A DNA stretch of 64,000 bases from Naegleria gruberi (taxonomy: Eukaryota), in the NCBI GenBank assembly GCA_000004985.1, contig GG738858.1, one strand, 5' to 3'. The position numbers and the translations under genes were made by a program. The notes below the pieces were generated by a model. The model was not told the origin of the DNA and searched no databases. It saw only the letters and a list, made by a program, of their open reading frames with translations. This document shows positions 4,149 through 31,457 of the stretch, one piece after another (the first letter of the stretch is position 1; each line of letters starts with the position of its first letter).

Positions 4149-5828
4149 TTATTGAGATGGAGTTGAAGGATTCAACCATGGTTTAGTCACTCTTGATACT
4201 GCCTTTTCAGATTGGAGGAAGGAGAGCAAGAGGCCATAATTAGTGATTGGAACACCTGCTTTGGATAGGTCAGAGAGACGGGCATTCATCTTTTGCTTAT
4301 CAATCATACATCCTCCACAGTGAATAATGAGTTTGTATTGGGAGAGATCCTTAATAAGCTGATACTCTCTGCCAAAGACAATATCCACCTTGATATTTCC
4401 CTGTCCAAATCTTTTTTCAATTGCTCTTGGTATTTGAACAGTACCGATATCATCTGCAATTCTGTTGTGATTACAAGCTTCACAGAGTAAGACTGAATCG
4501 CCTGGTTGGAGAGCTTTGAATGCTTCAATTCCTTTCAAAAATTCTGAAAGTCTTCCATTACTCATAAAGTTAATCATAATGACACTGAATGTAGTGATAT
4601 CAATAATACTCTCCTTTGTTGCCTCATCAATAGTCCATGGATGCACAATATCCATAGCTTGCGAGTCGGTAATTAAGAGTTGTAATTTTCCATTTGAATT
4701 AAGAGTTTTGATGGCTTCGAGGAATCTCTTCTTCTCCTTTTCCACAAGCTCCTTATCCGAACTTCTTGCATGTTTCAAATTCATTCTATATGAAAATACA
4801 TTGCTATACTCCCTGAGTAAATATTCATGAACCATGGCTTGAGGTTTGAGTAATCTACCAGATGGTGTCTCCTCATCCATTGGAATATTCAAAAATACAG
4901 TAGAGTTTTCCATTAAATTTGGAAGTAATCTTGTTGGATACATTGGAGTAGAGCTTGCCTTCATTTTACTCTTCTTGTGGCAATCTTCAATGAACTTGAT
5001 ACATTTGGTGTGAGCAATTTTTGATTCCAAATCCACACATGTAGTTCCACAGAAGTACTTATTCATTTGAACATTTCCCTGTTGCTCAAATTCATTGACT
5101 TTCAAATCAGTTTCAATCGAATCCAGCTTATCACTCAAACTCTCCACAGATGATCTCTTCAACTCGGAAACATTGAATATAATACAGAATGGTCTTTCAT
5201 TCTTTTCACACTCACCAGTCAACCATTTGGCTTGTTGAACACTGCTACCATTGAAAGGATCCACCACTACAACCACAATATCGGACTCTTTAAGGGCAAT
5301 CAGTGTTTTTTGTCTCTTCTTTTCGCCAAGATCTGATGCCTCATCAGTACCTGGTGTATCAAATAACTTTGTTGGACCAATACCGTGCAACTCCATAGTT
5401 GTCATCTTTACATCAGCAGTTGTACCAGGTGTAGAATCCACAATACTAGTATTTGAATTGGTCAAACAGTTCATCAGAGTTGATTTTCCACTATTCATAG
5501 CTCCAACAATTGCAATATTTGTCCTTTCAATGTAAATCGAGCCAATATTATTAGCACTATCACTTAAACTCACTCCAGAATGGAATAATTGTTTAGAATT
5601 CATTGAAAATTCCTTCATCATTATCTTTGTATTCATCATCATTTTCCATTCCGATGATCTTTTCACAGCTGATAATAATGGAAAATCCAACAATGAATTA
5701 CATTGTTGTATTGGCAATGATCTCCTCACAAGAGGTGAGGAACACAATGTTCGGATCAAGTGTTGTTGATGTGATTTCATTTTTTTAAAGTGCTTTTTCA
5801 TAAAACTAACCTTTTTAGTAACTTTCAT
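4149..5828 (-). CDS. hydF: HydF-type [FeFe]-hydrogenase maturation GTPase
   Basis: GTPase motifs G1 GAMNSGKST, G2 TPGTT, G3 DTPG. C-terminal FeS-cluster signature LLCEACNHN ...(45 aa)... IIHCGGC matches HydF CxHx(44-53)HCxxC. About 90-aa basic S/R/L-rich region precedes the GTPase domain (possible organellar presequence; true start may be an internal Met of the 5828 ORF). Confidence 0.85.
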   Translation of the reverse strand: MKVTKKVSFMKKHFKKMKSHQQHLIRTLCSSPLVRRSLPIQQCNSLLDFPLLSAVKRSSEWKMMMNTKIMMKEFSMNSKQLFHSGVSLSDSANNIGSIYIERTNIAIVGAMNSGKSTLMNCLTNSNTSIVDSTPGTTADVKMTTMELHGIGPTKLFDTPGTDEASDLGEKKRQKTLIALKESDIVVVVVDPFNGSSVQQAKWLTGECEKNERPFCIIFNVSELKRSSVESLSDKLDSIETDLKVNEFEQQGNVQMNKYFCGTTCVDLESKIAHTKCIKFIEDCHKKSKMKASSTPMYPTRLLPNLMENSTVFLNIPMDEETPSGRLLKPQAMVHEYLLREYSNVFSYRMNLKHARSSDKELVEKEKKRFLEAIKTLNSNGKLQLLITDSQAMDIVHPWTIDEATKESIIDITTFSVIMINFMSNGRLSEFLKGIEAFKALQPGDSVLLCEACNHNRIADDIGTVQIPRAIEKRFGQGNIKVDIVFGREYQLIKDLSQYKLIIHCGGCMIDKQKMNARLSDLSKAGVPITNYGLLLSFLQSEKAVSRVTKPWLNPSTPSQ

Positions 5829-12802: not shown

Positions 12803-14329
12803 ATGTTTCAACATCTCGACAATGACTCCCTCGCAAATATTATGAATTTTCTCAGCCTTTTTGATGTGATTGAAAACTTGGCGTTGGTAAATTCGCGTCT
12901 TTTCCGTTTGATGAACTTGGAAAATGATCATCAAGGAACCATTACGAATTTATTGATGGAAAGAATTTTATTCTCGGAAGAGGAGATGGATCTGATTGGA
13001 ATGTTGAATAGATTGGAGAGGGCTGTGTGTTTTGAGTCTCTTCTGAGTGATTTGGAGAGGGAGGTTGTTGATTGTGGTGTTTTGAAGGAGATTTTTGAGA
13101 GGAATAAATATGAGGAGGTTTCAGTGAAGGAGTGTGTGAAGGGGATGGATTGGAAGAGAGTCGTTAGGATTGAGAAGTATGATGAATTGAGGATTTGTGT
13201 GGAGCTGGGGCGGAGATTAGGCTATTTGGATGCATGTTGGTTGTATGAAAATCAAAAAATAGGGAGGAAACCTTTCCAATTGTTTTATAGTCATGAAATG
13301 GATGGTTACTCTGAAGGTAATCTATTATTTCTAGATTTTCTGCAACTGGTTAAGGCATATGAATTGTCAATGGATAAGATTTACAAAATTCACCTCTACT
13401 TTGTCAATAATCAACTAAAAATCTCGAAAATAGTTTCTCGAGCAAGAGAGGGACAAAAATTAACTGAAAAGGAAATTTTAGTGAAGGATTACAAGTATTT
13501 ATATGAAAAAATGTTGGGATATAGTGGAATTGTTGGTACACTGGACTTGAAAGTGCTCTCTTACCAAGAAGGTGTAGAAAACAATGTTACTATTTCAACT
13601 GTGGATATTCAATCTGCAAAAGTTTATAGAAGCACTTGCTGTACTCTCAGAAATGGTGAGACTAATGTTGGTCAATTATTCGCAGTCAACCAATTTTTCG
13701 ATGCCATTTCAAGACCAACTAAATGTGGAGATTTGAGACTTTCCCAAAAAGGAGACATCACACTGTGGACTATTTCAAGACAGGAAATAAGGAAAATGAT
13801 TAGACCTTTTGTAATTTATCCAGTGTTGTATTTTCCATTAGCAATATATTCACATTTCAAGTTTGTGAATTATGACTTTGGATGGAATGAGACACAAGTT
13901 CATCCATATCTCCACTTTTTCGATTGTTTGGTTTTCACTTTTTTGAGCTTGGTTGGAATAGATAACTTGACAATTAGAATTCGTAGGATTCCCAGAAATG
14001 ATGCCATAATTATGTTGTTGTGCACTTTAGGAATATTTCTTGTCAAGTTAACTATTTGTATATTTGGAACGAGCCACCCACTTCGATCCTTCATTAACAC
14101 CTTTTCATTCTCTGCACCATTCATCCTCTCCAGTGTACCATTCATTTATGGATTAAATTTATATCCAAAGGCATTGTTCTGGTATTGGAGATCAACCAAT
14201 TGGTTCTATAATAATATAGTTGTGAAAAAAACAGGTGGATTTTTGAGGAAATGTGTGGATTGGATTACAAATTATTATTCCTTAAATGGTGTTCAGCATG
14301 ACAGTTCAACTCGTTGCGCAATTAATTAG
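12803..14329 (+). CDS. F-box-like protein with C-terminal multi-pass membrane region (hypothetical)
   Basis: N-terminal F-box-like helix pattern (LANIMNFLSLFDVIENLALVNSRLFRLM). C-terminal third contains 4-5 hydrophobic helices. 508-aa uninterrupted ORF. Confidence 0.55.
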   Translation: MFQHLDNDSLANIMNFLSLFDVIENLALVNSRLFRLMNLENDHQGTITNLLMERILFSEEEMDLIGMLNRLERAVCFESLLSDLEREVVDCGVLKEIFERNKYEEVSVKECVKGMDWKRVVRIEKYDELRICVELGRRLGYLDACWLYENQKIGRKPFQLFYSHEMDGYSEGNLLFLDFLQLVKAYELSMDKIYKIHLYFVNNQLKISKIVSRAREGQKLTEKEILVKDYKYLYEKMLGYSGIVGTLDLKVLSYQEGVENNVTISTVDIQSAKVYRSTCCTLRNGETNVGQLFAVNQFFDAISRPTKCGDLRLSQKGDITLWTISRQEIRKMIRPFVIYPVLYFPLAIYSHFKFVNYDFGWNETQVHPYLHFFDCLVFTFLSLVGIDNLTIRIRRIPRNDAIIMLLCTLGIFLVKLTICIFGTSHPLRSFINTFSFSAPFILSSVPFIYGLNLYPKALFWYWRSTNWFYNNIVVKKTGGFLRKCVDWITNYYSLNGVQHDSSTRCAIN

Positions 14330-14690
14330 GAAATTTACAAATATTGAAATTACAGTTTACAAAAAAGTTAGTGAGTGAAGGTAGTTTCGATCTACCACCT
14401 TAGAATCTACCAAGCTTCCTATGTTCTCCCATTTAAACTATTCACCCACAAATTCTTTTCTCTACATAATTCAAGCTTTATCCTAAAGTTCATCTATAAA
14501 TAGAGATGGTTTTGGTTTTGGATTAAATTTATAAAAAGAATGACAAGATAAATTGTTTGATATGAGAATATTGATATTTATTTGGTTACCAATAAGAGGT
14601 ATTGAATATTACCCAAAAAAAACAAAGTTTACAAAAAATGATAATATTTCAATACTATTGATTGTAATTAATATTGAAACGAATGATGAT

Positions 14691-14849
14691 TTACCAACCA
14701 GCTGGTTTACTACAAGTTGGACATTTCAAACCAACTTTTCCAGATGGAGAACTTTTACATCCAGGGCAAACTCTGTGGGAACAACCATTCTTACAAGAAA
14801 TTGAAGATAAAGTTGAAGCATTGAAACTACACCACTCACACTTGGCCAT
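14691..14849 (-). CDS. Mini RING-HC-type zinc-finger protein (52 aa), copy A; not in ORF track (<60 aa)
   Basis: ATG 14849-14847, TAA 14693-14691. Protein MAKCEWCSFNASTLSSISCKNGCSHRVCPGCKSSPSGKVGLKCPTCSKPAGW. Cys/His spacing C-x2-C-x15-C-x1-H-x2-C-x2-C-x11-C-x2-C fits the C3HC4 RING consensus. 51/52 aa identical to copy B. Confidence 0.55.
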   Translation of the reverse strand: MAKCEWCSFNASTLSSISCKNGCSHRVCPGCKSSPSGKVGLKCPTCSKPAGW

Positions 14850-15351
14850 TTCGAAAATATTTCTTTTGATTTTTGGGTTAATAACAAAACAGTTGAATTG
14901 TTTTTTTGTTTGGTGGAAAATGAAATCATGCAGTTGGTTGGCCTATTTATTGTATTTGTTGTTGGAAAGTTATTGGAAACAATCTCTTTGGAACAGGTCT
15001 GAACTTGGATTTTGAGCCACATTTCAATGAAAACACGTGTTGCAAGAAAAGTTCATGACCATCAATTTAATGTTCAGTATTTGTTCATGGTCACGACTGG
15101 ATCTTCAAGATCATAAAAGTTTCGAATAAATCCATGTTGTGTCCATTCTTGATAGTTAACCAATCAATGCAAGAGGGCTATTTAAATTGTAAAACGAAAA
15201 TAAATGGTGAAATAATACTATTCACTCACTGACTCCCTGAAACAATTCTAATATCTCATCATGCAAAATATCTTTCGAATAAATTGAGTTGATCCACAAC
15301 CAATTTCTCAAAACAAATCAAAAAAACAATTCTAAACAATCATTAATCAAA
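14850..15351. promoter_or_regulatory. Shared 502-bp divergent promoter region between the two inverted mini-RING genes
   Basis: Head-to-head arrangement. Both 5' flanks contain a CAAAAAAACAATTC motif about 40-55 nt upstream of the ATG. Confidence 0.35.
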
Positions 15352-15510
15352 ATGGCCAAGTGTGACTGGTGCAGTTTCAATGCTTCAACTTTATCTTCAA
15401 TCTCTTGTAAGAATGGTTGTTCTCATAGAGTTTGTCCTGGATGTAAAAGTTCTCCATCTGGAAAAGTTGGTTTGAAATGCCCAACTTGTAGTAAACCTGC
15501 TGGTTGGTAA
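15352..15510 (+). CDS. Mini RING-HC-type zinc-finger protein (52 aa), copy B
   Basis: ATG 15352, TAA 15508-15510. MAKCDWCSFNASTLSSISCKNGCSHRVCPGCKSSPSGKVGLKCPTCSKPAGW. Same C3HC4 spacing. The ORF track extends it upstream with a non-ATG start. Confidence 0.55.
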   Translation: MAKCDWCSFNASTLSSISCKNGCSHRVCPGCKSSPSGKVGLKCPTCSKPAGW

Positions 15511-15663
15511 AATTGACCAACTCAAGTTGGAATCTTTCGTTTTTTTGCTAAAGTTTCTTTTTTTTTTCGATATTTCAGATTCCCTTATTCTAATAGTTTA
15601 CATTCCAATAAATGCAACAAATTTAAACTAATGTTTCCATAATAAGAATTATATTTAATGAAT

Positions 15664-16611
15664 TTAGTATACGCATTCTTTCAATGATTTTCCATATTTA
15701 CGCAATTGATTAAAGATTCTAATCAATTGTTCACAATCTTCAATCTTTGGCAATTGATTTCCAGTTTCAAAAGTTGCCGTAGTTTTCTTGGCATCACCAA
15801 CCTCCTCACTGTCCATAATCTTTCCAAAATATTCTCTACTCTGCATCAATTTATCTTCCCATTTGTCTGCGAATGAGCTCACTTCTTTACTTTTTAGGCA
15901 AGAGTTCATGGCCACAGGGATAGCCACACTGCATCCAACTGCCATGGCCACACCAACTCCAGCCACAATAGGAACTCCCACAAAAGCACCAATAAATGTA
16001 GTAATTGCAGCAATTCCCAATCCAACTAACCCAACCAAGGACACAATTCCCAAAATAATGCATGCCCAAAAGTATTTCTTTGCTTTGGCTCTCAGAATAT
16101 TCTCAATATGATTCACAGAAGATTCAAGAGTGCTTCTATACCGTGGATGTGTAATCAGTTTCAAATGATCATGAATTACTGTCATTCTCTTCACATAGGA
16201 TTCCTGGTTGACTTGGTTGAAAATGTCCTTAAATAGCTCAACACCCATTTCACCAATTTCAATAAGGAAATTTCCATGTAACAATATAGCATAAATAGCT
16301 TCCCTAAATGATTCTCTTTCACTTTCTTTCAGAAACAAGTAACAATCCTTAATGCATTTACTCATTTCTTGCTCAGTCGATGAAAAATCTTGTTTTTCCA
16401 TTTCGTCTGCAATTTCTTTCAAATCTTTCTTGTCGTCGTTGTTGTCATTATGAATTGGCTTGTTCTCATTGCTCAGGTCTATATTTTGCCAGGTTTCAAT
16501 GTAGACGTAATCGTCCAAGATGTCAAAACAATCGACAATGTCAAGGCAAGTTTGTTGAGTTTCTTCTGGTTTCTGATTGGAACTATCTTTCTTTGTGTGC
16601 CGTTGACCCAT
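15664..16611 (-). CDS. N-myristoylation-motif protein with C-terminal glycine-zipper membrane hairpin, paralog A (unknown family)
   Basis: ATG 16611-16609. MGQRHT (Gly2, Thr6 = N-myristoylation consensus). Helical N-terminal ~190 aa, then ILGIVSLVGLVGLGIAAITTFIGAFVGVPIVAGVGVAMAVGCSVAIPV (about 48-aa GxxxG-rich hairpin), then ~70-aa tail. 315 aa. Paralog of 17947-18894. Confidence 0.75.
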   Translation of the reverse strand: MGQRHTKKDSSNQKPEETQQTCLDIVDCFDILDDYVYIETWQNIDLSNENKPIHNDNNDDKKDLKEIADEMEKQDFSSTEQEMSKCIKDCYLFLKESERESFREAIYAILLHGNFLIEIGEMGVELFKDIFNQVNQESYVKRMTVIHDHLKLITHPRYRSTLESSVNHIENILRAKAKKYFWACIILGIVSLVGLVGLGIAAITTFIGAFVGVPIVAGVGVAMAVGCSVAIPVAMNSCLKSKEVSSFADKWEDKLMQSREYFGKIMDSEEVGDAKKTTATFETGNQLPKIEDCEQLIRIFNQLRKYGKSLKECVY

Positions 16612-16968
16612 TTACTTGAATTGCCGTTTTTTTTGAAAATATTAATGGAGTTGTGGCACAGATATTTATTCGAAACGTGAATTGACAATTGATTTTCTCT
16701 CAATCACTTGTTTGTCTCAAACTTGTAAATTTCTGCTACGATAGAAGGAGGTACATTAATTCTACTCCTATCCTTAAATGACAAGATGTTGGAATGTGCT
16801 AAAAAACGTGATCATTCTTTACAATTTTAACAAGATTCGAAACTTTCCATTGGGTAAAGACTAAATATAAAAAGACTGCAGCTCCACAAATTACCAAGTT
16901 ATCTCCAACCTCTTGAAATATTGAAATTTTGAATCGATTCAATTCTATCTTAAATATTGTAAAAAAAA

Positions 16969-17904
16969 ATGAGTAAACGAAACAGACAAGATTTCGAATA
17001 TATTAAATTAATTACCAATTCGGAGGAAATATTCACGGAAGAGAAAGCAAAAGCTATGAAACTGCACCACCAACAACACGAAGATAATGACATATTTTCC
17101 GATGATATTTGCTTTGAAATAATTTCCATGCTTGATGATTCGTGGTTTATTCTAAATAATTGCACTTTAATTTCAAAACAATTCTGTCAGGTGATCAAGG
17201 AACGCTCTAAACTAGTTATTCAATTTAAAAAACCATTGACAGAGAGACGAGTTGAATTATTAAGGAAAAGTCAATTTATGAATTGTATTGTTAATGTTAA
17301 ATTTAATGAAATGTTGTTGGAATTGAGAGAAAATATCAAATTTATAAGTGAAATGAAACAATTAACATCACTTGATGTTTCTGACAATGAAATTGGAAAT
17401 GTAGGAGCTAAACATATAAGTGAAATGAAACAATTAACATCACTTAATATATGTAATAATCGAATTGGTGATGAAGGAGCTAAATTCATAAGCGAAATGC
17501 AACAATTAACATTACTTGATATTTCTGATAATCATATTGGTGATAAGGGAGTTAAATTTATAAGTGAAATGAAACAATTGACATCATTCAATATTTCTGA
17601 TGATCTAATTGGTAATGTAGGAGCCAAATCTATAAGTGAAATGCAACAATTAACATCACTTGATGTTTCTGATAATCATATTGGTGATAGTGGAGTAAAA
17701 TTCATCAGTGAAATGAAACAATTAACATCACTCAATATTGCTATCAATCGAGTTGGTGATGAAGGAGCCAAACTCATAAGTGAAATGAAACAATTAAGAT
17801 CACTTAATATTTCTGACAATGAACTTGGTGATGAAGGAGTCAAATTCATAAGTGAAATGAAACAATTAAGATCAAATTGTTTGGGTATTGTACAGCAGAA
17901 TTGA
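16969..17904 (+). CDS. F-box-like / RNI-type leucine-rich-repeat protein (FBXL-like)
   Basis: ATG 16969. N-terminal F-box-like segment (DDICFEIISMLDDSWFILNNCTLISKQFCQVI) followed by about 8 near-identical 24-aa LRRs (ISEMKQLTSLDVSDNEIGNVGAKH...). Confidence 0.85.
   Translation: MSKRNRQDFEYIKLITNSEEIFTEEKAKAMKLHHQQHEDNDIFSDDICFEIISMLDDSWFILNNCTLISKQFCQVIKERSKLVIQFKKPLTERRVELLRKSQFMNCIVNVKFNEMLLELRENIKFISEMKQLTSLDVSDNEIGNVGAKHISEMKQLTSLNICNNRIGDEGAKFISEMQQLTLLDISDNHIGDKGVKFISEMKQLTSFNISDDLIGNVGAKSISEMQQLTSLDVSDNHIGDSGVKFISEMKQLTSLNIAINRVGDEGAKLISEMKQLRSLNISDNELGDEGVKFISEMKQLRSNCLGIVQQN
17338..17880 (+). repeat. Tandem 72-bp coding repeat (about 7.5 copies, more than 85% nt identity) encoding the RNI-type LRR array
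   Basis: Repeated ataagtgaaatgaaacaattaacatcact...ggtgat/ggaaat...ggagctaaa units visible by eye. Confidence 0.85.
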
Positions 17905-17946
17905 AAGATTGTTCAACAAATTATTTTCCAAAATGATTTAATTATT

Positions 17947-18894
17947 CTAAATGACACATTCTTTCAATGCTGTTCCATACTTGCTCAATTGATAAAAGAT
18001 ATTAATCAAGTGTTCACATTCTTCAATCTTTGGCAACTTGTTGGCATTTTCATAATCCTTGGTGGTCTTTTCAGCTCTGGTAAATTCTGAACTTTCCATT
18101 GCATTCTTAAAACATTGTTTGCTTTCCATCAATTTATCTTCCCAATTGCCTGCGAATGAACTGACTTCAGTGGCTTCCATGCAAGAGTTCATGACCACAG
18201 GAATGGCCACACTGCATCCAACTGCCATGACCACACCAACTCCAGCCACAATAGGAACACCCACAAAGGCACCAATCACTGTTGTAATTGCAGCAATTCC
18301 CAAACCAACCAAACCAACCATGGACACAACTCCCAAAATAATACTTGCCCAAAAGTATTTCTTTGCTTTGGCTCTCAGAATATTCTCCATATGTTTAATG
18401 GAAGTTTCAAGTTTAGTTAAATATTTGGCATTGTCAAAGTAATCTTCCCAAAACTTGTAAATTGCATTCATTCTCTTTTCATATGATCCTTGGTTGACTT
18501 GATTTAAAATATCAGTAAATAGTTCAACTCCCAATTTACCAACTTTAATAAGGTGATTGCCATGGAGAACGATATTTTCAATTGCCTTGTAAAATGGTTC
18601 TCTCTCACTTGGTTTTAGAAACAGATAACAATCTTGAACACATTTTTGGATTTCGTTTTGAGTTTCAAAAATGTCAGTTTTTTGCAATTCTTTGGAAATT
18701 TCCTTCAAATCTTTCTTGTTTTCTTTCAATTCAATATTTTGCCAATAGTTTTCTATATAAACTCGATTCTCAATCATGTCAAAACAATCAACAATGTCAA
18801 TACTCGTTGAAGAATCTGTTTCTTGAGCAAGTTGCTTGAGATTGAGAGATTGGTGAAGGCCTGTGTCCTTCTTTGTGGTTTGGCGTTGACCCAT
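17947..18894 (-). CDS. N-myristoylation-motif protein with C-terminal glycine-zipper membrane hairpin, paralog B
   Basis: ATG 18894. MGQRQT. Same architecture and length (315 aa) as paralog A. Hairpin ILGVVSMVGLVGLGIAAITTVIGAFVGVPIVAGVGVVMAVGCSVAIPV. Confidence 0.75.
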   Translation of the reverse strand: MGQRQTTKKDTGLHQSLNLKQLAQETDSSTSIDIVDCFDMIENRVYIENYWQNIELKENKKDLKEISKELQKTDIFETQNEIQKCVQDCYLFLKPSEREPFYKAIENIVLHGNHLIKVGKLGVELFTDILNQVNQGSYEKRMNAIYKFWEDYFDNAKYLTKLETSIKHMENILRAKAKKYFWASIILGVVSMVGLVGLGIAAITTVIGAFVGVPIVAGVGVVMAVGCSVAIPVVMNSCMEATEVSSFAGNWEDKLMESKQCFKNAMESSEFTRAEKTTKDYENANKLPKIEECEHLINIFYQLSKYGTALKECVI

Positions 18895-19337
18895 TGTTTT
18901 TGTTTTTTTAAAACGTGAGTTTTGTTAGAAACGTGAAACTCAAAACATATTTATTCGAAACGTGATGCGTGTGGTGTTGACCATCATGTCAATTTCTGGT
19001 ACGATAGTAGGTTTATTACAAATTTCTTGTTTTTAATTGGTGAGATGTAGGAGAATATTGTTTTCTTTCTCATCGACTGTGTAACCATTCAATTCGATTT
19101 GCTCCTTAGATCCACCAATATCATTATATGTAATTCCGCAGTCCTAATTGTAACACTGGCATCAATTTTTGGAGGGAGTGGAATACGAATTTGATATTTT
19201 GTACGATCAACACCAATACGTACCAGTTGCCATGAAAGGTATGAGCCTGAGCGAATTCTTCTCTCGATTATTTAACATTGAGTTTTCATAACAAATAAAA
19301 CTCAAATCAGAACTGTTTACTAATATTATTTTGAAAA

Positions 19338-21515
19338 TTAAAGTATTTTCTTTTCGAGTTGTTTGAGAATATTTTCGAGTAACTCAACAATTTTTGTGGT
19401 TCTGTTTTTGCACTTGGTTTCATCGAAATCTGAGAGATTAGTCAATTTCTTGACTTCGTTGTTGATATTCAATGGTTCCTTATTCAAGTATTTCAATCTG
19501 TTTTCATCTGTGGTATCCTTTGTGAATGATTTACCACATAGAGTAAAGTTACCAATTTGGAGATAGCAATTATCCATCTTCTTAGCCAATAATGGTTTGA
19601 TATTGCATAACTTGAGATTACGAGGATATTGCAAGTCGAAATTAGATGCATTCGGATCAGAAAGGAAGTCTTCAATGATTGGTAAAACAGTTGAGAAAAT
19701 CTTTTTAAGCTCATTACTTTGTTTCTTCTTTGATGGGGCAGTGCTGTCATTATTGGCTAATCTAATGATCTTCTTGCTCCATTGTGAATAATTGGATTCC
19801 TCACTGTCATCACTTGCCTTTTTGCCTCCCTTTTTCTTGCTCTTTGTCTTGGTCAATATGGTTGTGAGTTCCTTAAAATCAACAACTTTGTTGTTCAAAA
19901 GATTACTGATCTCAGCCATCATGTAAGAGAACTTGACCTTGGCAAAGTCACACAAGCAAACTTGGAGTACGTGATTGTGCCAAATTGCAATTAATTGCAA
20001 TACATCTGCTTCTTCAACCTTGGAACTGACATTATAGGTGAGAAAGTGTTGGCCATGTTCCTTGCAATGTGCAATAGCAATAAGAGTTGCTAGGACTATA
20101 TCTGAGGCCACTTTTTGTGCCTTTGGGAGGTAATTTTCAGCAATGTGGTGTGTTCTGCTGATCATCTTGTTAATAAGGTGATTCTTCTCATTATTAGTGG
20201 AGAATACAGGACGATTTGCTGAACTCTTTGATTGATGACCAATGAAAATAGGAGTCATGTAATTGTTCATGAAAGTTTCACCAAGATTTTCAATATTGAC
20301 AGTTGTCTTCATGTGGGAGGCAATTTGGTCAAGAAGTTTCAAATATTCTCTATTGCTAACATTCACATTCTTTGTTGGGTGTAGCAATTGATGAATGTTT
20401 TCAAGAATATTTGAGAAATCTTCGCCAACTTCTTGATACATGTGATTCCAAGAATCAACCATTTCTTGATTCTTTTGGTGATTGTGGCAACCAAATAATC
20501 TTCCAAAATCAAGCTTGAGTTTGTCCATTGGTGACAAATCCTTTCCTCTCAAATTCAAAGTACCAAAGATTGCTAGTTCATTAGCATGTTCTGGAACTGT
20601 AATGGTAACAACAATACAATTGTGACTCAAGAAGTGAATGAAATCAACCATTTCTTCTTGTTTCTTGAAAAGCTTTTTGATTTTAAGGATGGAATGCAAG
20701 AAGTTTTTGGCACAATTCATGGCAGAAGTGGAAGTAATCTCCTTTGCTTCTTCGAGCTTGGTGATTATTTCATCAACCTTGCTCTTCTTAAAGTCACCCT
20801 CGTCCATACTGGCCTTCTTTAAAATGTTAGCAAATCCCTTCTCTTCGACAATGTACTTTTTAAAGAATGTCTTTTCCTTTCCTGCTACACCTTCTTCATC
20901 ATTGCAAACCTCAATTCTTGCTTGACCTTTCAGAGTTCCCTTGTGAATCTTCAAGTAAACTTTGCTAATTGTCTCAAAATTTTCTTCATACTTTTTCTTA
21001 TTGATACATTCTCTGAGGGCAGAGTAAAGAATGGAGAGAGAGGTCAATCTTTGTTGACCATCTATTACTTGTTGTCTGTTACCTGCCTTTAGGACAATGG
21101 AGCCAATAAAGTAGCTGCTCTCTGGTTCATTCTTGTTATACTCATTGTAGACATCATCAAGAAGGTCCATAATGTTGTCGATCTCCCAAGCATAAGGACG
21201 TTGGTATTCAGGAATAGAATAGCACAATTCAAAAAGATTGTCAATTGCTCTATTGTTGGTGGTCAACTCCCAAGCTCTTCTTTCTGAGGCAACTATCTTT
21301 GGAGGAACAGGTGGACTGAATGTGAGTGGAGAATCTGTTGAAAATGGAAGAGAGGTATCACTCTTAGAGCTTGATGGAGTTGCTGGTTGTGAAGAAGAGG
21401 AAGGAGTACTGGCGATAATGGTTTGTTCCTTCTTGGTCTTCTTCTTGTCTTTCTTTGGGGTAATGTCAGAGCAGTCTCTGGTGTTTTTCTCTTCTTGTCT
21501 ACCCCCTTTGACCAC
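19338..21515 (-). CDS. DUF262 (GmrSD / ParB-like N-terminal domain) family protein with long C-terminal region; 5' end unresolved
   Basis: Hallmark DUF262 motifs IPEYQRPYAWE and SYFIGSIVLKAGNRQQVIDGQQRLTSL. S/T/P/K-rich N-terminal low complexity. C-terminal region with His-rich patches (THHIAENYLP, IAHCKEHGQH, IWHNHVL), possibly DUF1524/HNH-like. The 725-aa ORF has no ATG before the domain. An ATG at 21574 lies in another frame just upstream of a homopolymer at 21502-21506. Confidence 0.75.
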   Translation of the reverse strand: MVKGGRQEEKNTRDCSDITPKKDKKKTKKEQTIIASTPSSSSQPATPSSSKSDTSLPFSTDSPLTFSPPVPPKIVASERRAWELTTNNRAIDNLFELCYSIPEYQRPYAWEIDNIMDLLDDVYNEYNKNEPESSYFIGSIVLKAGNRQQVIDGQQRLTSLSILYSALRECINKKKYEENFETISKVYLKIHKGTLKGQARIEVCNDEEGVAGKEKTFFKKYIVEEKGFANILKKASMDEGDFKKSKVDEIITKLEEAKEITSTSAMNCAKNFLHSILKIKKLFKKQEEMVDFIHFLSHNCIVVTITVPEHANELAIFGTLNLRGKDLSPMDKLKLDFGRLFGCHNHQKNQEMVDSWNHMYQEVGEDFSNILENIHQLLHPTKNVNVSNREYLKLLDQIASHMKTTVNIENLGETFMNNYMTPIFIGHQSKSSANRPVFSTNNEKNHLINKMISRTHHIAENYLPKAQKVASDIVLATLIAIAHCKEHGQHFLTYNVSSKVEEADVLQLIAIWHNHVLQVCLCDFAKVKFSYMMAEISNLLNNKVVDFKELTTILTKTKSKKKGGKKASDDSEESNYSQWSKKIIRLANNDSTAPSKKKQSNELKKIFSTVLPIIEDFLSDPNASNFDLQYPRNLKLCNIKPLLAKKMDNCYLQIGNFTLCGKSFTKDTTDENRLKYLNKEPLNINNEVKKLTNLSDFDETKCKNRTTKIVELLENILKQLEKKIL

Positions 21516-24455: not shown

Positions 24456-27400
24456 TCAAACTTCTAATAAACTGTTAAAATCAATTGCCCTTCGGAATAT
24501 CTTGGAACCACTTTCAACAATTCTATTATTCTTATTCATTCGTTTTAGGAATTCAGTATTGTATCTTAATGAATAGTGAGCGTAACAAAGTGCTTCAATA
24601 TTGATATCCATTGCCTTTTCAATAAAATCTTCATCGGAAATAATTTCATAGGATGCAAGTTTAAGTGAAGTAACATCACTTTGTACAGCTTTCAATACTA
24701 TTTCAGGATCGTTTCTCATATCAAATGATGCATAACAGAAAGAATTAAACGATTTCCCCTGACCAGAAGCATACATTACACACTCCTTATCCCCAAGGAA
24801 TTTGTTGGATGCATACTGAAGTGCTTCTTCATGGTTTTGAACACATTTCAGGACGACATTTCTGTTATATGCAAACTTATGAGGCACATACTGTAAAACC
24901 TTTCCGTTAACTCCAGCACATTCTAAAATAAACTCTTCCTCATGCTGTAACTCTTCACTGGCAAACAGGAATGCAATAGCATCAGATTTGATAGCTTTTA
25001 ACATAATTTCTCTATCATTTTTGAATTCATGTTTCAACTCGTTAGACAAGTACATAATTGATCGACCATTAAGTTCCAGTGATTTTAAAGCAATTTCTCT
25101 GTCTTCCCTTAATGTAATTGGTATAAAAAGTATATCAAATTGCTTAGGTTCAATTTCTAAAATAAAGGTCCTATCTAGTCTAAGTCTATTCGAAACATAC
25201 ATAAGATTCATCATCCTAGCATTAACAGCTAAAAGGGCAAATTGTCTATCATCTCTAAAAGTATAATCAAATTCATTAAGAGACTTAATACTTAATGCTA
25301 TGGCAGCCATTTCCTTATTGAGAGGAAATGGGATGTTGAGATGTGGCGGTAACCATTTTCTTAACGCTTCCAACACTTCTCCATCACTTTTCATTTCTCC
25401 AGAGGCATAGCGATAACAGCTTGCTGAATATTTTAATCCTGTTAAAATTAATTCCTTGTCATTTTGCAAATCTTCTGATAGGTAGTTACATCCATGACGA
25501 ATTGCATTTAGAGCAATTTCTCTATCATTTCGCAAATATTTTGGAATATATTGAATCAAATAACCATTAATCCTAGTTAACTTCCTAATAAAATCAATAT
25601 TGTTCCTTAATCTTTCAGACACGTACTCGAAAGATGAAGCATTCTCTGAGAATGCAATTGCTTGCACTATTTCCTCCTCATCTCTGTATTCTTCTGGAAC
25701 ATATTTCAGAGGATGAGTATCATATCTGCAAGCTTCATAAACTATTTCTCTATCTAATTCTGATTCATTGATATTTCTTAAGCTCAATCCGTTTCGTACT
25801 GCAACGATTAACAATTCTCTGTCTTGTTGGAGAGAATGACTGGCGTATTTCAAGTTATTTCCATCTAATTGGACAGCCTCTAATACTATGTCTCTGTCTT
25901 GTTTGTATTCTTGTGGTATTTCTTCAATACTTCCAATTCTTCTTACGTATTCTAATATTAAATCTCTATCTTCCTTCAGACTATATCCCAAAAAGTCAGA
26001 TATATTTGACATTGAATTTCTAATTGCTTTTACAACAAAGTCTCTCGAATTTTTCCAAGATTCAGGAGCATACTCAAAGTAGCATCCGTCTCTACCTATT
26101 AAAAACTCTAGTATCTCCTTATCTGTTTTTAATTCTTCTGATGCATAATTATAATTACCAGTATCATATAAAAGTGCTTCCTGTAACAATGACTTATCAT
26201 TTTGCAATTCCGCTGATGCAAACTTTAGAGCTCCGTAATGTTCTTTTATCGCCAACCTGATTATTTCTCGGTCATTTCTTAACTCGTCGTTCAACGATTC
26301 TAAAATTTTACGATCTTGTAATATATAGTCCAATACTAGTTGTCTACTGTTTTTTAGTTCGCCCTTGCAATGTTCTAAGCATACAGGATCTATTCTAATA
26401 ATTCTCAACTGTCTTTCCTCATTAAGAGAATTGAAATAATCTTTAGAAGTCCACATTGCTGAACTATACTGACATTGAATATCAATTAGTTCATCAACAA
26501 AATCACTATGATTAACTAGAGACGAACCACCATAATCAAGAAAGCTTAATGAATTACCTGCTCCTGAAATGCATTCTAGAACGAATTCACGGTCATGAAT
26601 TAATTCTCGAGCGATTCTACTGGAGAATGCGCTAGAATTAACAGAAGAACCAAGCAATACAAGTTCCTTCACAAAACTTCTATCACTACAGAAGTAACCA
26701 TGATCCACATAATACAAAGCCATTCCATTAGATTTTACAGCCTCCATAACAATCTCTTTGTCTTTCTTCAGTTCTTTTGAAACATCCTTCAAACTGTCTC
26801 CTTTCATTTTTACAATTTGTAAAACAAACTCTCTGTCTGATCTTAATTTTTCAGACGCATACGAAAATGAAAACCCTGAATTTTTAGCAGCTAGTAAAAT
26901 AACCTCTTTGTCATTGGAAAATGTTGGAGCATGCTGGAGAACACACGAATATTTAGAATTCTTGATAGCTTCCATCACTATTTCTCTATCTTTTAAATGT
27001 TCTGGAACATACTCGATAACCAAACCATCTTGTTTCACTGCTTCCAACACAATATCTCTAGAATTTTTCAATTGGGATGAAGCAAATTTTAAACATTTTG
27101 GTTGTTGTTTGATAGCTAATTTCATTAATTCATCATCATTATGAAATTCTGGGAGATGTTCAAATAAAATTTCCTCATCATAATATAAGTTTGATTTCAA
27201 TTTTAACACTTTCAAGATAAATTCTCTTTGGCTTTTCAATTTCTTACCAACAAATTTAATTGCCGAATAATGTTCTCGAAGTGCTACCAAAGCAACAGTT
27301 TCATCATTTTGCAAATCCTCTGATGCATATTCTAATAATTGTCCTTCAATTTTAAGAGTTTTTAAAAAGGCTAATTTGCAATCATTGTCAGGAAATGGAT

Positions 27401-27626
27401 GATCTTGAATATATTCACAAGCTGGAATGTTCTTTCTCTTCTTAAATTGTTGTACATGTTCATAAATCTTGTTGTTTTTAGAAACCCGTTCCTTGCAGAC
27501 TGCCGAAAAATGGTTTGCAAGTAAAATAAAACTCAGAGTTTCGGATGCTGAATTGTTAAATACGACCTGATGGTCATTGGAAGGCAAAAAATTTATCAGC
27601 AAATCTGAGAATGAATCTTTCACCAT
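24456..27626 (-). CDS. Giant tandem-repeat protein (1056 aa) built of about 25 helical 38-40-aa repeats, DUF4116-like
   Basis: Recurring unit D(R/K)E(I/F)VLEAVKQDGxxLxYASEELKND (e.g. DREFVLQIVKMKGDSLKDVSKELKKDKEIVMEAVKSNGMALYYV). Single uninterrupted ORF. Confidence 0.7.
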   Translation of the reverse strand: MVKDSFSDLLINFLPSNDHQVVFNNSASETLSFILLANHFSAVCKERVSKNNKIYEHVQQFKKRKNIPACEYIQDHPFPDNDCKLAFLKTLKIEGQLLEYASEDLQNDETVALVALREHYSAIKFVGKKLKSQREFILKVLKLKSNLYYDEEILFEHLPEFHNDDELMKLAIKQQPKCLKFASSQLKNSRDIVLEAVKQDGLVIEYVPEHLKDREIVMEAIKNSKYSCVLQHAPTFSNDKEVILLAAKNSGFSFSYASEKLRSDREFVLQIVKMKGDSLKDVSKELKKDKEIVMEAVKSNGMALYYVDHGYFCSDRSFVKELVLLGSSVNSSAFSSRIARELIHDREFVLECISGAGNSLSFLDYGGSSLVNHSDFVDELIDIQCQYSSAMWTSKDYFNSLNEERQLRIIRIDPVCLEHCKGELKNSRQLVLDYILQDRKILESLNDELRNDREIIRLAIKEHYGALKFASAELQNDKSLLQEALLYDTGNYNYASEELKTDKEILEFLIGRDGCYFEYAPESWKNSRDFVVKAIRNSMSNISDFLGYSLKEDRDLILEYVRRIGSIEEIPQEYKQDRDIVLEAVQLDGNNLKYASHSLQQDRELLIVAVRNGLSLRNINESELDREIVYEACRYDTHPLKYVPEEYRDEEEIVQAIAFSENASSFEYVSERLRNNIDFIRKLTRINGYLIQYIPKYLRNDREIALNAIRHGCNYLSEDLQNDKELILTGLKYSASCYRYASGEMKSDGEVLEALRKWLPPHLNIPFPLNKEMAAIALSIKSLNEFDYTFRDDRQFALLAVNARMMNLMYVSNRLRLDRTFILEIEPKQFDILFIPITLREDREIALKSLELNGRSIMYLSNELKHEFKNDREIMLKAIKSDAIAFLFASEELQHEEEFILECAGVNGKVLQYVPHKFAYNRNVVLKCVQNHEEALQYASNKFLGDKECVMYASGQGKSFNSFCYASFDMRNDPEIVLKAVQSDVTSLKLASYEIISDEDFIEKAMDINIEALCYAHYSLRYNTEFLKRMNKNNRIVESGSKIFRRAIDFNSLLEV

Positions 27627-29327: not shown

Positions 29328-31457
29328 ATGTCGAAATCTCCTTCATCTGCTGTTAAACGTTTAATGAGAGATTGGAAGGAGGTTCTCGATTATCCATTAG
29401 AATATATCTATGCCCAACCATATCCAATTATGAATAATGGACAAGTAGAAGGATATGACATGTACAATTGGTTTGCAACATTGCTGGTTCCTGAGAGTGT
29501 TAGTACATGTACTGCAATTTCATTGACCTTAACTTTCAATGATAATTATCCAATTGTTCCACCAAATGTGAAATGTCTTTCCGTTATTGCCCATCCTCAT
29601 GTATTTGGTTCATATATTTGTTTAGACATGCTATCAGTTCCTTACAAGTATAACGGTACATGGGATTCCTGGTCTGCTTGGTCTTCCACATACTCTGTCT
29701 TATCCATTTTACTTCAATTAGAATCATTCTTGTTGGATAAGTATTTATATTCGAAATTTTCGGTTATCAAGAATGCAGAATATAAAGAACTCATTGAAAT
29801 GGGACATGATCCAAAGAATGCCAAGTTTTGGCCTTGGGCTCCGCATTGGGGCTCTATAAACTCTCAAATTCCAACAGCATTGAAATCATCTAATGAGATT
29901 GGAAACACTCAAATACTGAGAACAAAATCATCCAAAAGTAAGAAAATCAATATCAATGGTTCTTCCACTGCTACATTGGATGTTATTCAATCAGAGTGGA
30001 AAGGAGCTAGCAGCACATTGGAAGTTCTTTCCTCACTCAAATCAAACGATAATCAGTTCAAAGGAGAAAAATCGAGCAAAACGAATACTTCAATCGTTAT
30101 GATTAATGGAAAACCAATGGAAAAGATTACTAACACATTTGGTGAAGTAGTATTGACTCAAAATCAAGTAATGGAAAGTTTAAGACACAGAGCTAGCTTA
30201 TTGAATGTGAAACCTACTGAAATAGTTTCATATAAAGACTTGAAATTCAACCATCGATTGGATATTATGAAATTACCACCAGAAATTATCAGAGAAATAT
30301 TCAGTTATTTAGACTTTTCAGATTTGAAGAGTGGTGTGGAACAGACATGTCACTATTTGAAAGGTATTGCATCGAGCAAAGCAATCATTCAGGAACGGGA
30401 ATTAATATGTTTCCATTCAAAAGTCACATTTAAGGAAGATACTTTGGGAATTGGATTGAATGTTGAAGTTAAACCAAACGGTTACGTTGATAATATCAGT
30501 TCTCCAATGGACCTAGTCTCTAGAAATGCCTTTTACAATGATAATGCTGTAAAGAGTGCTTGGGGAATTGAAACCAAATTCTGGATTCCAATTTTTATCA
30601 ATAAGAAACATGCTGACTTTGAATTATTCAAATCAAGTGTGAAAGCCATTTACAATGCTCATCCTTCCATCACCAAGGAAAAGTCAAAGACTTACTCTGA
30701 TCTCTTCAATTCTCCAGAAGTCTACATTGATCTGATTTGCAAGATTATGAACTCAATGATAGTTGACCTCATGAAGGGTGAAGTACATGCCTCAATCAAG
30801 TATTTGCAAGGTTATTTGTATTTCCACAGATGGCTGCTATATATCTTGGAAATCTTCCCATTTACAACCAATGCCATTGAAAGAAAGGTCAAGAATTTCG
30901 TTAATCGCGAACATTTGAGAAACAAATATAATTGTCCAAACTTGGGTGAGTTCTTAATCTTGCTGTCAGTGCTGGGACCTGCAAATTTAAATTGGGATTC
31001 AGTCAAGTATGCCATTGTGGAAGAAACTTGCACTAGAAATGTGTTGTGGGCTGTTAAAATGTTTCCAGAATTGGCAAATCTTTCAATCGAGCAACCTAAA
31101 CGAATTGAAAAGACTTGGAAGGCAAATATGGTTTCTTGCAAATTGCTAATGTTCCACGTCTTTTTCTTAAAGACAGTAATTGAGAAGGAGCACGCAGGAA
31201 GATCTTTGGATGAAGTTGCCAGATTATATGATTTGAATTTTGGATTATCACCTGAAACTCAAGATGGACAAGATTTGGAAGAGTTGGTACAGGTTGCCAT
31301 TTTCAAGAATAATAATGCACAGGACTTTGAAGAATTCTTGGAATATGTGGGGTTGGATGAGCAGCTGAATAGTCGAGAAAAGATATTGACCTTTTTGGAA
31401 TATTGTGTGAAAACCTCTGAACAGAGAAGATACCACAAAGTTCCTCCAAATAAATAA
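29328..31457 (+). CDS. Ubiquitin-conjugating-enzyme (UBC/E2) domain fused to an F-box-containing C-terminal region
   Basis: N-terminal UBC fold with AVKRLMRDWKE, YNWFATLLVPE, NYPIVPPNVKC and active-site region HPHVFGSYICLDML (HPN-Cys motif). After a low-complexity linker, F-box LPPEIIREIFSYLDFSDLKSGVEQTCHYL. 709-aa continuous ORF. Confidence 0.7.
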   Translation: MSKSPSSAVKRLMRDWKEVLDYPLEYIYAQPYPIMNNGQVEGYDMYNWFATLLVPESVSTCTAISLTLTFNDNYPIVPPNVKCLSVIAHPHVFGSYICLDMLSVPYKYNGTWDSWSAWSSTYSVLSILLQLESFLLDKYLYSKFSVIKNAEYKELIEMGHDPKNAKFWPWAPHWGSINSQIPTALKSSNEIGNTQILRTKSSKSKKININGSSTATLDVIQSEWKGASSTLEVLSSLKSNDNQFKGEKSSKTNTSIVMINGKPMEKITNTFGEVVLTQNQVMESLRHRASLLNVKPTEIVSYKDLKFNHRLDIMKLPPEIIREIFSYLDFSDLKSGVEQTCHYLKGIASSKAIIQERELICFHSKVTFKEDTLGIGLNVEVKPNGYVDNISSPMDLVSRNAFYNDNAVKSAWGIETKFWIPIFINKKHADFELFKSSVKAIYNAHPSITKEKSKTYSDLFNSPEVYIDLICKIMNSMIVDLMKGEVHASIKYLQGYLYFHRWLLYILEIFPFTTNAIERKVKNFVNREHLRNKYNCPNLGEFLILLSVLGPANLNWDSVKYAIVEETCTRNVLWAVKMFPELANLSIEQPKRIEKTWKANMVSCKLLMFHVFFLKTVIEKEHAGRSLDEVARLYDLNFGLSPETQDGQDLEELVQVAIFKNNNAQDFEEFLEYVGLDEQLNSREKILTFLEYCVKTSEQRRYHKVPPNK

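Follow-up and report, generated by a model that had tools for sequence, protein, structure and literature searches.

The window that we analysed is a 64,000-nucleotide stretch of contig GG738858.1 of Naegleria gruberi. It holds two minus-strand nuclear genes annotated as hypothetical proteins, designated here paralogs A and B, which stand on either side of an LRR ORF (Table 1). A preliminary description of this DNA had reported two minus-strand 315-aa ORFs with MGQRxT starts around an LRR gene; their coordinates and starts (MGQRHT and MGQRQT) are as described, and the overall protein identity, given there as moderate, is 60%. At the nucleotide level, the identity is 73.5% over 912 codon-aligned nucleotides. 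The paralogs are tandem copies on the same strand, 2283 bp apart at a constant offset, and their DNA similarity comprises the CDS, 11 nt on its 3' side and about 135 nt of the promoter. Both ORFs are intact, with an overall dN/dS of approximately 0.3, and purifying selection acts on both paralogs. An 85-nt match of 65% identity downstream of paralog A, which bears on whether the LRR gene was part of the original duplication unit, was too weak to claim, and this possibility was dropped. A possible relationship between paralog B and a neighbouring 508-aa gene, suggested by a weak tblastn match (E = 0.15), found no backing from hhalign (probability 1.5%). Neither paralog turned up in expression or proteomic records when the literature and its supplements were searched with the gene identifiers, and exact-protein contig look-ups in the context search gave no matches.

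Table 1. Features of the paralog pair and of the ORF between its members
Feature	Coordinates	Strand	Description
Paralog A	15664..16611	minus	315-aa ORF; NAEGRDRAFT_47681 / XP_002679323 / D2V9F2, identical to the annotated N. gruberi protein
Putative gene-conversion tract, A	15898..16104	minus	aa 170-238, ENILRAKAKKYFW plus hydrophobic hairpin; 92.3% nt identity to the B tract; holds a perfect 42-nt run
Hydrophobic segment, A	15898..16071	minus	aa 181-238, about 58 aa; hairpin of two predicted helices joined by a GAFVGVP turn
N-terminal MGQRHTK, A	16591..16611	minus	fits PROSITE-style M-G-{EDRKHPFYW}-x-x-[STAGCN]-{P}
Promoter 19-mer, A	16662..16680	minus	TCACGTTTCGAATAAATAT, exact; 51-69 nt upstream of ATG
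LRR_6 (RNI-like) ORF	16969..17904	plus	311 aa; Pfam LRR_6, 7e-35; unannotated; last repeat cut short
Paralog B	17947..18894	minus	315-aa ORF; NAEGRDRAFT_79063 / XP_002679324 / D2V9F4, 100% identity and coverage
Putative gene-conversion tract, B	18181..18387	minus	aa 170-238; same evidence as the A tract, offset 2283 nt
Hydrophobic hairpin, B	18181..18354	minus	aa 181-238; same basis as A
N-terminal MGQRQTT, B	18874..18894	minus	fits the same N-myristoylation pattern
Promoter 19-mer, B	18947..18965	minus	TCACGTTTCGAATAAATAT, identical to A; 53-71 nt upstream of ATG

Besides the 19-mer common to both promoters, the window contains four copies of the motif GAAACGTGA, where 0.27 would be expected; three of these copies lie within the A and B promoters. 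Neither motif was seen near the start of the LRR ORF.

The ORF in the middle had been described as an F-box/RNI-LRR gene. The LRR_6 assignment holds, but no F-box or F-box-like domain was detected by Pfam (E ≤ 10) in its N-terminal 129 aa. Its best database match is 64% identical, and its closest relatives (60–66%) include many N. gruberi paralogs across other scaffolds, none of which has a precomputed F-box. The preliminary description had also speculated that the pair and the LRR gene might work together as one coordinated sensor/effector unit, which we consider highly improbable. The case for it is one of physical adjacency: the LRR ORF and paralog A are divergent, with 357 bp of intergenic DNA between them, and 42 nt separate the end of the LRR ORF from the stop codon of paralog B. 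Against it, the hairpin family consists of two members at one locus in the collections searched, the LRR ORF is unannotated with a truncated last repeat, neither promoter motif of the pair was seen next to its start, and none of its relatives on other scaffolds is accompanied by a hairpin gene, because no other hairpin genes exist. With a single such locus, the proposed unit receives no comparative support, and the LRR ORF is probably unrelated to the hairpin pair.

Predicted membrane hairpin and lipid anchor

As previously proposed, both N-termini match the N-myristoylation motif, and on this basis Gly2 is predicted to be N-myristoylated. The MGQRxT start is kept in both paralogs, while residues 7–30 have diverged with indels. 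It is followed by the remainder of an acidic and poorly conserved N-terminal stretch of 75 residues, three helices, the basic juxtamembrane sequence RAKAKKYFW, a Gly/Ala/Val-rich uncharged segment of approximately 58 residues, and three further helices. The segment contains no charged residue, reaches a Kyte-Doolittle mean of 2.7 over 19 residues, and includes Pro214 and Pro232.

The preliminary description had called this segment a GxxxG-rich glycine zipper, a name that its sequence does not bear out. Nine Gly residues (188, 194, 197, 199, 208, 212, 218, 220, and 226) form one strict GxxxG motif, G208-G212, which is flanked by T204 and V216, and the number of small-xxx-small pairs is six to eight. 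The canonical patterns (G/A/S)xxxGxxxG and GxxxGxxx(G/S/T) are absent from the hairpin of both paralogs. The hairpin shares with glycine-zipper membrane helices an abundance of Gly, Ala, and Ser, but in addition to having a single GxxxG, its small residues are spread around the helix rather than being placed on one face (mean resultant length of 0.42 in helix 1 and 0.12 in helix 2).

The hydrophobic segment is predicted to insert into the membrane as a helical hairpin, so that the N-terminal and the C-terminal helices would both face the cytosol and pack into one bundle. Such an arrangement recalls the dually anchored monotopic or hairpin proteins (flotillin/reggie and caveolin), which likewise combine an N-terminal lipidation motif with a long uncharged segment of hairpin length and have both soluble parts on one side of the membrane. 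Cys238, a conserved juxtamembrane residue of the pair, could be acylated, which would extend the likeness. Unlike these proteins, the pair has no SPFH, caveolin, or other recognised domain, its lipidation is a motif match, and its hairpin is placed centrally, flanked on both sides by helices of a single bundle. Because the paralogs have a near-identical hairpin and common promoter motifs, they are probably co-expressed and could associate through the small-residue-rich hairpin. Their diverged soluble parts may differ in binding partners. As a working guess, the bundle may serve as a membrane-anchored scaffold or adaptor.

Family searches and fold comparison

A word-indexed search of 5.8 billion proteins returned only paralogs A and B themselves. 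An exhaustive profile search of 1.84 billion representative proteins returned the pair together with two repeat proteins, one of TPR type and one HAMP-like; both were rejected as relatives, being sums of low-complexity matches over 7–8 stretches. No relatives were found in back-translated scans of metagenome and viral contigs, and megablast of the region against a phage collection gave no match. Pfam searches at E ≤ 10 with the whole proteins and with the N-domain, hairpin, and C-domain separately gave only sub-threshold matches (DUF2207_C at 19.9 bits against a cut-off of 33, DUF6861, HHD_RTEL1, a holin family, and SseC), which we treated as compositional, and the PDB profile search gave only aquaporin transmembrane noise. 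The proteomes of N. lovaniensis and Willaertia magna are within the database family searched, and no homolog was found in either, whereas the positive control HydF was recovered from them at 79% and 67% identity, respectively. As far as these collections reach, the genes are a lineage-restricted orphan pair with two members.

These results agree with the earlier statement that the proteins cannot be assigned to a known family. They give no support to the resemblances that had been suggested along with it: neither HeLo/MLKL-like nor Bcl-2/colicin-like proteins appeared among the Pfam (E ≤ 10) or PDB matches or among the top 50–60 fold matches, and the same was true of ApoL. Mic10 and certain other small membrane proteins have a Gly/Ala-rich two-helix hydrophobic hairpin, so the hairpin of the pair might have been conserved because the pair is a diverged member of a housekeeping family of this type (MICOS Mic10, TIM17/22/23, HIG1, reticulon/REEP, caveolin, or oleosin). 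However, no family of this kind, including MICOS and TIM subunits, was found by the profile searches with the whole proteins or the isolated hairpin at E ≤ 10, the PDB gave no relatives, and N. lovaniensis and Willaertia magna, where orthologs would be expected, yielded none. We regard this explanation as close to refuted.

An AF2 model of residues 75–315 had a pLDDT of 63.6 and a pTM of 0.56, with 70–85 in the soluble helices; the full-length model (pLDDT 44) was too poor for use. The model, which is of moderate quality, is a seven-helix bundle in which two long helices run into and out of the hydrophobic segment, and the hairpin lies between helices 4 and 5. Both AF2 models make the hairpin helical, with low confidence, and in the model of residues 75–315 it is the least confident part, at a pLDDT of 40–48. 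In Foldseek searches, generic helical bundles matched best, no match fell below E = 0.1, and TM-scores did not exceed 0.38.

Some alpha-pore-forming toxins of the ClyA family work as adjacent A/B gene pairs. The pair might be read as a latent membrane-permeabilising two-component pore former with a ClyA-family layout, whose helical bundle shields or positions the hairpin, although we judge this to be very unlikely. Like members of this family (ClyA, YaxAB/XaxAB, Nhe, Hbl, Ahl, and Mak), the paralogs are all-helical proteins of approximately 300 aa encoded by two related adjacent genes. The predicted order of seven helices with a hydrophobic piece between the fourth and fifth would also fit the published description of the family, a five-helix bundle (alpha1, 2, 3, 6, and 7) whose variable membrane-active part lies between alpha4 and alpha5 (PMC6162564). 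Furthermore, ClyA, AhlB, SmhB, and MakA predominate among the natural-protein entries of the Foldseek list, but as weak matches with scores in the generic helical-bundle range. The pair has no sequence similarity to toxin families in Pfam (HlyE, HBL, and related, E ≤ 10) or in the PDB, and the hairpin, which is the crucial element, is where the model is least reliable. The hydrophobic segment is also longer and more uniformly apolar than the beta-tongue of ClyA. Finally, the pair is eukaryotic and apparently cytosolic, with no signal peptide-like start; its uncharged segment and myristoylation motif suggest a constitutive anchor at the cytosolic face rather than a soluble secreted toxin. It would be a long shot to propose that the proteins are eukaryotic, cytosol-facing, lipid-anchored relatives or analogues of the ClyA-type two-component toxins, in which a membrane is permeabilised or remodelled by a hairpin that the bundle releases or positions, and in which the membrane pieces of the two subunits stay matched through gene conversion. 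The pair would matter more only if this weak resemblance were real, in which case a fold known so far from bacterial toxins (PMC6162564) would have a eukaryotic, intracellular member.

Identity mosaic between the paralogs

The divergence between the paralogs is not uniform. In the tract that codes for the basic motif and the hydrophobic segment, 16 of 207 nt differ and the amino acid identity is 91%, whereas the four segments flanking it show 62–79% nucleotide identity. dS is 0.21 in the tract and 1.24 in the rest (95% bootstrap intervals of pS, 0.08–0.29 and 0.51–0.71), and dN is 0.043 and 0.315, respectively; the drop is approximately six-fold for both. Accordingly, omega is nearly the same in the tract (0.21, interval 0.06–0.55) and in the rest (0.25, 0.14–0.39). 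The edges are sharp, with 7 of 10 codons differing at aa 160–169 and four consecutive non-synonymous codons at aa 239–242. The identity mosaic with flanks diverged at synonymous sites, which the preliminary description had noticed in the sequence, is thus confirmed by the dS values along the genes.

Several statistics place the synonymous mosaic beyond chance, with moderate, not overwhelming, support. Among conserved degenerate residues at aa 162–241, identical codons are used at 55 of 64 (86%), compared with 25 (40%) expected at saturation from the codon usage of the window; outside this region, the figures are 78 of 119 and 57.5. After stratification by amino acid, a Mantel-Haenszel test gave z = 3.46 (p = 3e-4), for a region that had been picked beforehand from the same data. 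An unbiased max-chi-square scan over all segments gave a permutation p of 13/300 (about 0.04), and its best segment, aa 139–255, is wider than the sharp tract. The longest perfect run between the paralogs, 42 nt, was equalled in 0.05% of site shuffles (p = 0.0005). The GC content of the tract is 45%, compared with 36–37% for the genes. ORFs of 107 and 127 aa on the opposite strand also overlap it.

The mosaic had been attributed to either gene conversion or extreme constraint on the hairpin. Because dN and dS are both lowered while omega remains steady, the tract appears younger rather than more constrained, and conversion explains it better than extreme constraint does. An old tract could instead have been held similar by selection at the nucleotide level, for instance on codon choice for co-translational membrane insertion, on an mRNA element, or on an overlapping feature, or by a local mutational cold spot; we consider this unlikely. 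It would fit the observations that the tract is also the part best conserved at the protein level, that its composition is distinct, and that the synonymous dip is only moderately supported by the unbiased scan, and the antisense ORFs could be taken as an overlapping feature. In a comparison of these two paralogs, such constraint or a cold spot is not phylogenetically separable from conversion. However, protein-level constraint alone would have lowered omega in the tract, the excess of identical codons persists after amino acid stratification and comparison with codon usage, and folding of the tract mRNA gave no excess of structure (z = -1.4 and -0.5). The antisense ORFs arise because codons rich in GGN, GCN, and GTN yield no antisense stop codons.

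Ectopic gene conversion is therefore the best reading of the mosaic, as inferred from these two sequences. In this scheme, an old duplication (dS above 1) would have come first, and the tract of one copy would later have been overwritten by the sequence of the other, in an event about one sixth as old as the duplication; whether this conversion took place, in which direction, and when are all read from the same two sequences. The pattern resembles interlocus gene conversion between tandem paralogs in its short contiguous tract of about 200 bp within otherwise old duplicates, in the parallel synonymous and non-synonymous drop with sharp edges, and in the placement of the copies 2.3 kb apart in the same orientation. 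It differs in that the comparison here comprises two sequences. Partial conversion between neighbouring duplicates is an ordinary event, and Naegleria genomes encode genes for homologous recombination and mismatch correction (PMC9928731).

Taken as a whole, the genes are somewhat more probably than otherwise lineage-restricted tandem paralogs encoding myristoylated membrane-hairpin helical proteins in which the hairpin tract has been gene-converted. If so, the locus shows partial gene conversion in Naegleria cleanly and on a small scale, and flags an uncharacterised, species-restricted membrane protein. Such a pair is unsurprising: species-specific genes of unknown function are numerous in Naegleria genomes, and the core of the genus amounts to only 25% of its pangenome (PMC9928731). 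In annotation, a predicted lipid anchor, a predicted topology, and a common promoter motif could then be added to two hypothetical proteins.

A minor correction concerns the register of the tract. The preliminary description had reported a segment of about 210 nt with approximately 92% identity, including a perfect 40-mer. The similarity was reproduced, and the window holds exactly two copies of the 40-mer, at 16065 and 18348. The coordinate pair given for the segment (15891–16100 and 18183–18392) is 9 nt out of register and has 32% identity, whereas the in-register partner of the first interval, 18174–18383, is 90.5% identical to it.

Synonymous and nonsynonymous divergence along the two paralogs

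Paralog A and paralog B, both of 315 residues, are located on one 782-kb scaffold. Their ORFs begin at the earliest possible start codon past an in-frame stop, and the annotated models comprise the same 315 residues. DNA similarity between them extends across the coding sequences and 11 nt beyond the stop codons on the 3' side, and recurs in blocks of the promoters. The codon-aligned sequences are 73.5% identical (60% at the protein level). The paralogs differ at just 16 of the 207 nt encoding aa 170-238, hereafter the tract (92.3% identity). Both edges are sharp: 7 of the 10 codons at aa 160-169 differ, and on the other side all four codons of aa 239-242 carry replacements. These edges set the tract bounds in the table.

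Features of the paralog pair and its surroundings
Feature	Position	Strand	Details
Paralog A	15664-16611	-	NAEGRDRAFT_47681 / XP_002679323 / D2V9F2
Paralog B	17947-18894	-	100% identity, full length, to Naegleria gruberi NAEGRDRAFT_79063 / XP_002679324 / D2V9F4
Tract	15898-16104 (A), 18181-18387 (B)	-	putative conversion tract
Segment	aa 1-61		nt identity 0.67, dS 1.97, dN 0.31
Segment	aa 62-169		nt identity 0.67, dS 1.01, dN 0.34
Segment (tract)	aa 170-238		nt identity 0.92, dS 0.21, dN 0.043
Segment	aa 239-281		nt identity 0.62, dS saturated, dN 0.38
Segment	aa 282-315		nt identity 0.79, dS 0.65, dN 0.17
Exact 19-mer TCACGTTTCGAATAAATAT	16662-16680 (A), 18947-18965 (B)		51-71 nt upstream of ATG
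Second block CTATCGTA(G/C)CAGAAATT	16728-16744 (A), 18991-19007 (B)		~115-135 nt upstream
LRR ORF	16969-17904	+	311 aa
G-alpha genes	16-1086, 2904-4124	+	Pfam G-alpha 5e-52, 8e-58
HydF	4149-5828	-	559 aa
508-aa ORF	12803-14329	+	
Inverted repeat	14690-14854, 15347-15511		165 nt, 95% complementary, 492-nt spacer
LRR-like piece	14803-14884		85 nt
Cys-rich ORF	15289-15510	+	73 aa
GmrSD_N / DUF262 protein	19338-21515	-	725 aa, domain 4e-32
DUF4116 protein	24456-27626	-	1056 aa, Pfam 2.7e-185
UQ_con / F-box-like protein	29328-31457	+	709 aa

The preliminary description of this locus is borne out as an observation, with small corrections to coordinates and to the description of a motif. Its shared 40-mer occurs as exact copies at 16065 and 18348, inside a 42-nt perfect run. 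The segment pair that it singled out is indeed highly similar, but the B copy had been placed 9 nt out of register; the identity is 32% in that register and 90.5% after moving B to 18174-18383. The identity mosaic, synonymous sites included, is real, with moderate statistical support: dS is 0.21 in the tract, compared with values from 0.65 to saturation in the other four segments, and the bootstrap intervals of pS are fully separate (0.08-0.29 inside it, 0.51-0.71 elsewhere). Expectations for codon identity were set from codon usage in 20 long ORFs of the window: where A and B encode the same residue, they also use the same codon at 55 of 64 positions within aa 162-241 (25 expected at saturation) and at 78 of 119 outside (57.5 expected). 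Valine codons are identical in 11/11 cases inside and 2/6 outside, and the test stratified by amino acid gave z = 3.46 (p = 3e-4). Because this region had been picked beforehand from the same data, an unbiased max-chi-square scan was also run, which gave p = 13/300 with aa 139-255 as the best segment.

Probable gene conversion and the alternative of constraint

Strong constraint at the protein level alone lowers dN and omega and leaves dS high, whereas a younger common ancestry lowers dN and dS in parallel. In the tract, both are lowered approximately six-fold, and omega is 0.21 (interval 0.06-0.55) compared with 0.25 (0.14-0.39) outside. Of the two explanations proposed earlier, gene conversion or extreme constraint, the omega values thus speak against the latter at the protein level. 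Constraint at the nucleotide level or a cold spot may also account for the similarity, as A and B are the only sequences compared, with no outgroup; the mRNA folding energy of the tract is not unusual (z -1.4 and -0.5), and the antisense ORFs across it result from its Gly/Ala/Val codon content. The copies are in direct orientation, 2283 bp apart, and Naegleria genomes encode genes for recombination and mismatch correction (PMC9928731). Together, the steady omega, the lack of a folding signal, the close direct copies and the recombination genes favour an ectopic gene conversion of ~207 bp between A and B, which would be roughly six times younger than the duplication. The pattern itself is genuine but evolutionarily commonplace: on the favoured reading, a partial conversion between tandem paralogs, here in an uncharacterised, lineage-restricted gene pair.

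The shared promoter blocks are a candidate cis-regulatory element. GAAACGTGA has four copies in the window (0.27 expected), three of which lie within the A and B promoters, and this clustering suggests common regulation.

Predicted protein architecture and family searches

The MGQRxT start is kept in both proteins, though residues 7-30 have diverged with indels, and both N-termini match the N-myristoylation pattern, as had been claimed. Residues 181-238 carry no charge (19-residue hydropathy mean up to 2.7), contain a GAFVGVP turn, follow a basic RAKAKKYFW stretch, and have a length that fits a two-helix hairpin. Such a hairpin would leave the two soluble parts facing the same side of the membrane, and the myristoylation motif with a start unlike a signal peptide would make that side the cytosol. 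The pair are probably N-myristoylated, hairpin-anchored helical membrane proteins. The label "glycine zipper" does not hold in the strict sense, since there is one GxxxG and no GxxxGxxxG-type pattern; the small residues spread beyond a single helix face. Seven cysteines are common to A and B, among them Cys238 at the hairpin end, whose acylation is only a guess.

AF2 modelled the full-length protein poorly (pLDDT 44) and aa 75-315 with moderate confidence (pLDDT 63.6, pTM 0.56; 70-85 in the soluble helices and 40-48 in the hairpin). The second model has seven predicted helices, of which helix 4 enters the hydrophobic segment and helix 5 leaves it. Foldseek found no match in the PDB under E = 0.13. 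The predicted order of parts is that of the ClyA family, whose hallmark is a bundle of five helices and, between alpha4 and alpha5, a membrane-active insert (PMC6162564).

A word-indexed search of 5.8 billion proteins detected no relatives of the pair, and neither did scans of metagenome and viral contigs. When 1.84 billion cluster representatives were searched exhaustively with an HMMER profile, the only matches were the pair itself and two repeat proteins, which were rejected as spurious. HydF, encoded in the same window and used as a positive control, recovered its orthologs from N. lovaniensis at 79% and from Willaertia magna at 67%, so related proteomes were present in the search; either the family is confined to the N. 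gruberi lineage, or it has diverged too far to be recognised. In Pfam at E <= 10 there were solely sub-threshold compositional matches and in the PDB profile search only transmembrane noise, in agreement with the earlier view that no known family can be assigned. HeLo/MLKL, Bcl-2 and colicin, the pore-former analogies drawn in the preliminary description, found no support in the Pfam, PDB or database searches, nor did ApoL or the housekeeping candidates Mic10, TIM17 and HIG1.

The LRR ORF and neighbouring genes

The ORF between the paralogs encodes a clear LRR_6 protein, but the F-box ascribed to it is not matched at its N-terminus, even at E <= 10. No annotated N. gruberi protein is identical to it (best match 64%), and the GenBank accessions of A and B are consecutive, so nothing is annotated between them. 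Its last repeat is incomplete and it ends 42 nt from the paralog B stop codon; it could be a gene that the annotation missed, or a pseudogene fragment. Its closest relatives, 60-66% identical, are encoded on many other N. gruberi scaffolds. The hairpin genes occur at one locus only, and the proposed sensor/effector unit has no positive evidence. Directly 3' of paralog A lies an inverted repeat, one arm of which holds a Cys-rich ORF, and an 85-nt piece there matches the 5' part of the LRR coding sequence at 65% similarity (E = 2.7e-4); these may be decayed 5' fragments of LRR genes.

The window is AT-rich (GC ~33%), with ordinary eukaryotic gene content: two G-alpha genes, HydF, Myb, RRM, and a UQ_con + F-box protein. 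The G-protein alpha-subunit genes are in tandem, a further local duplication. The HydF hydrogenase maturase ORF is longer than the annotated protein (543 aa, 97% coverage), a small discrepancy in start codon or gene model. The 508-aa ORF, whose exact sequence is absent from the protein collection, is unrelated to the hairpin pair; it has a weak N-terminal F-box-like match (Pfam F-box E = 0.03, under the cut-off) and several hydrophobic segments at its C-terminal end. Immediately upstream of paralog B, a GmrSD_N / DUF262 domain, more familiar from the restriction and defence enzymes of bacteria, is encoded here on a eukaryotic nuclear scaffold. Farther along are a protein with ~25 DUF4116 repeats and one that joins a ubiquitin-conjugating domain to an F-box-like domain, an unusual E2/F-box combination.
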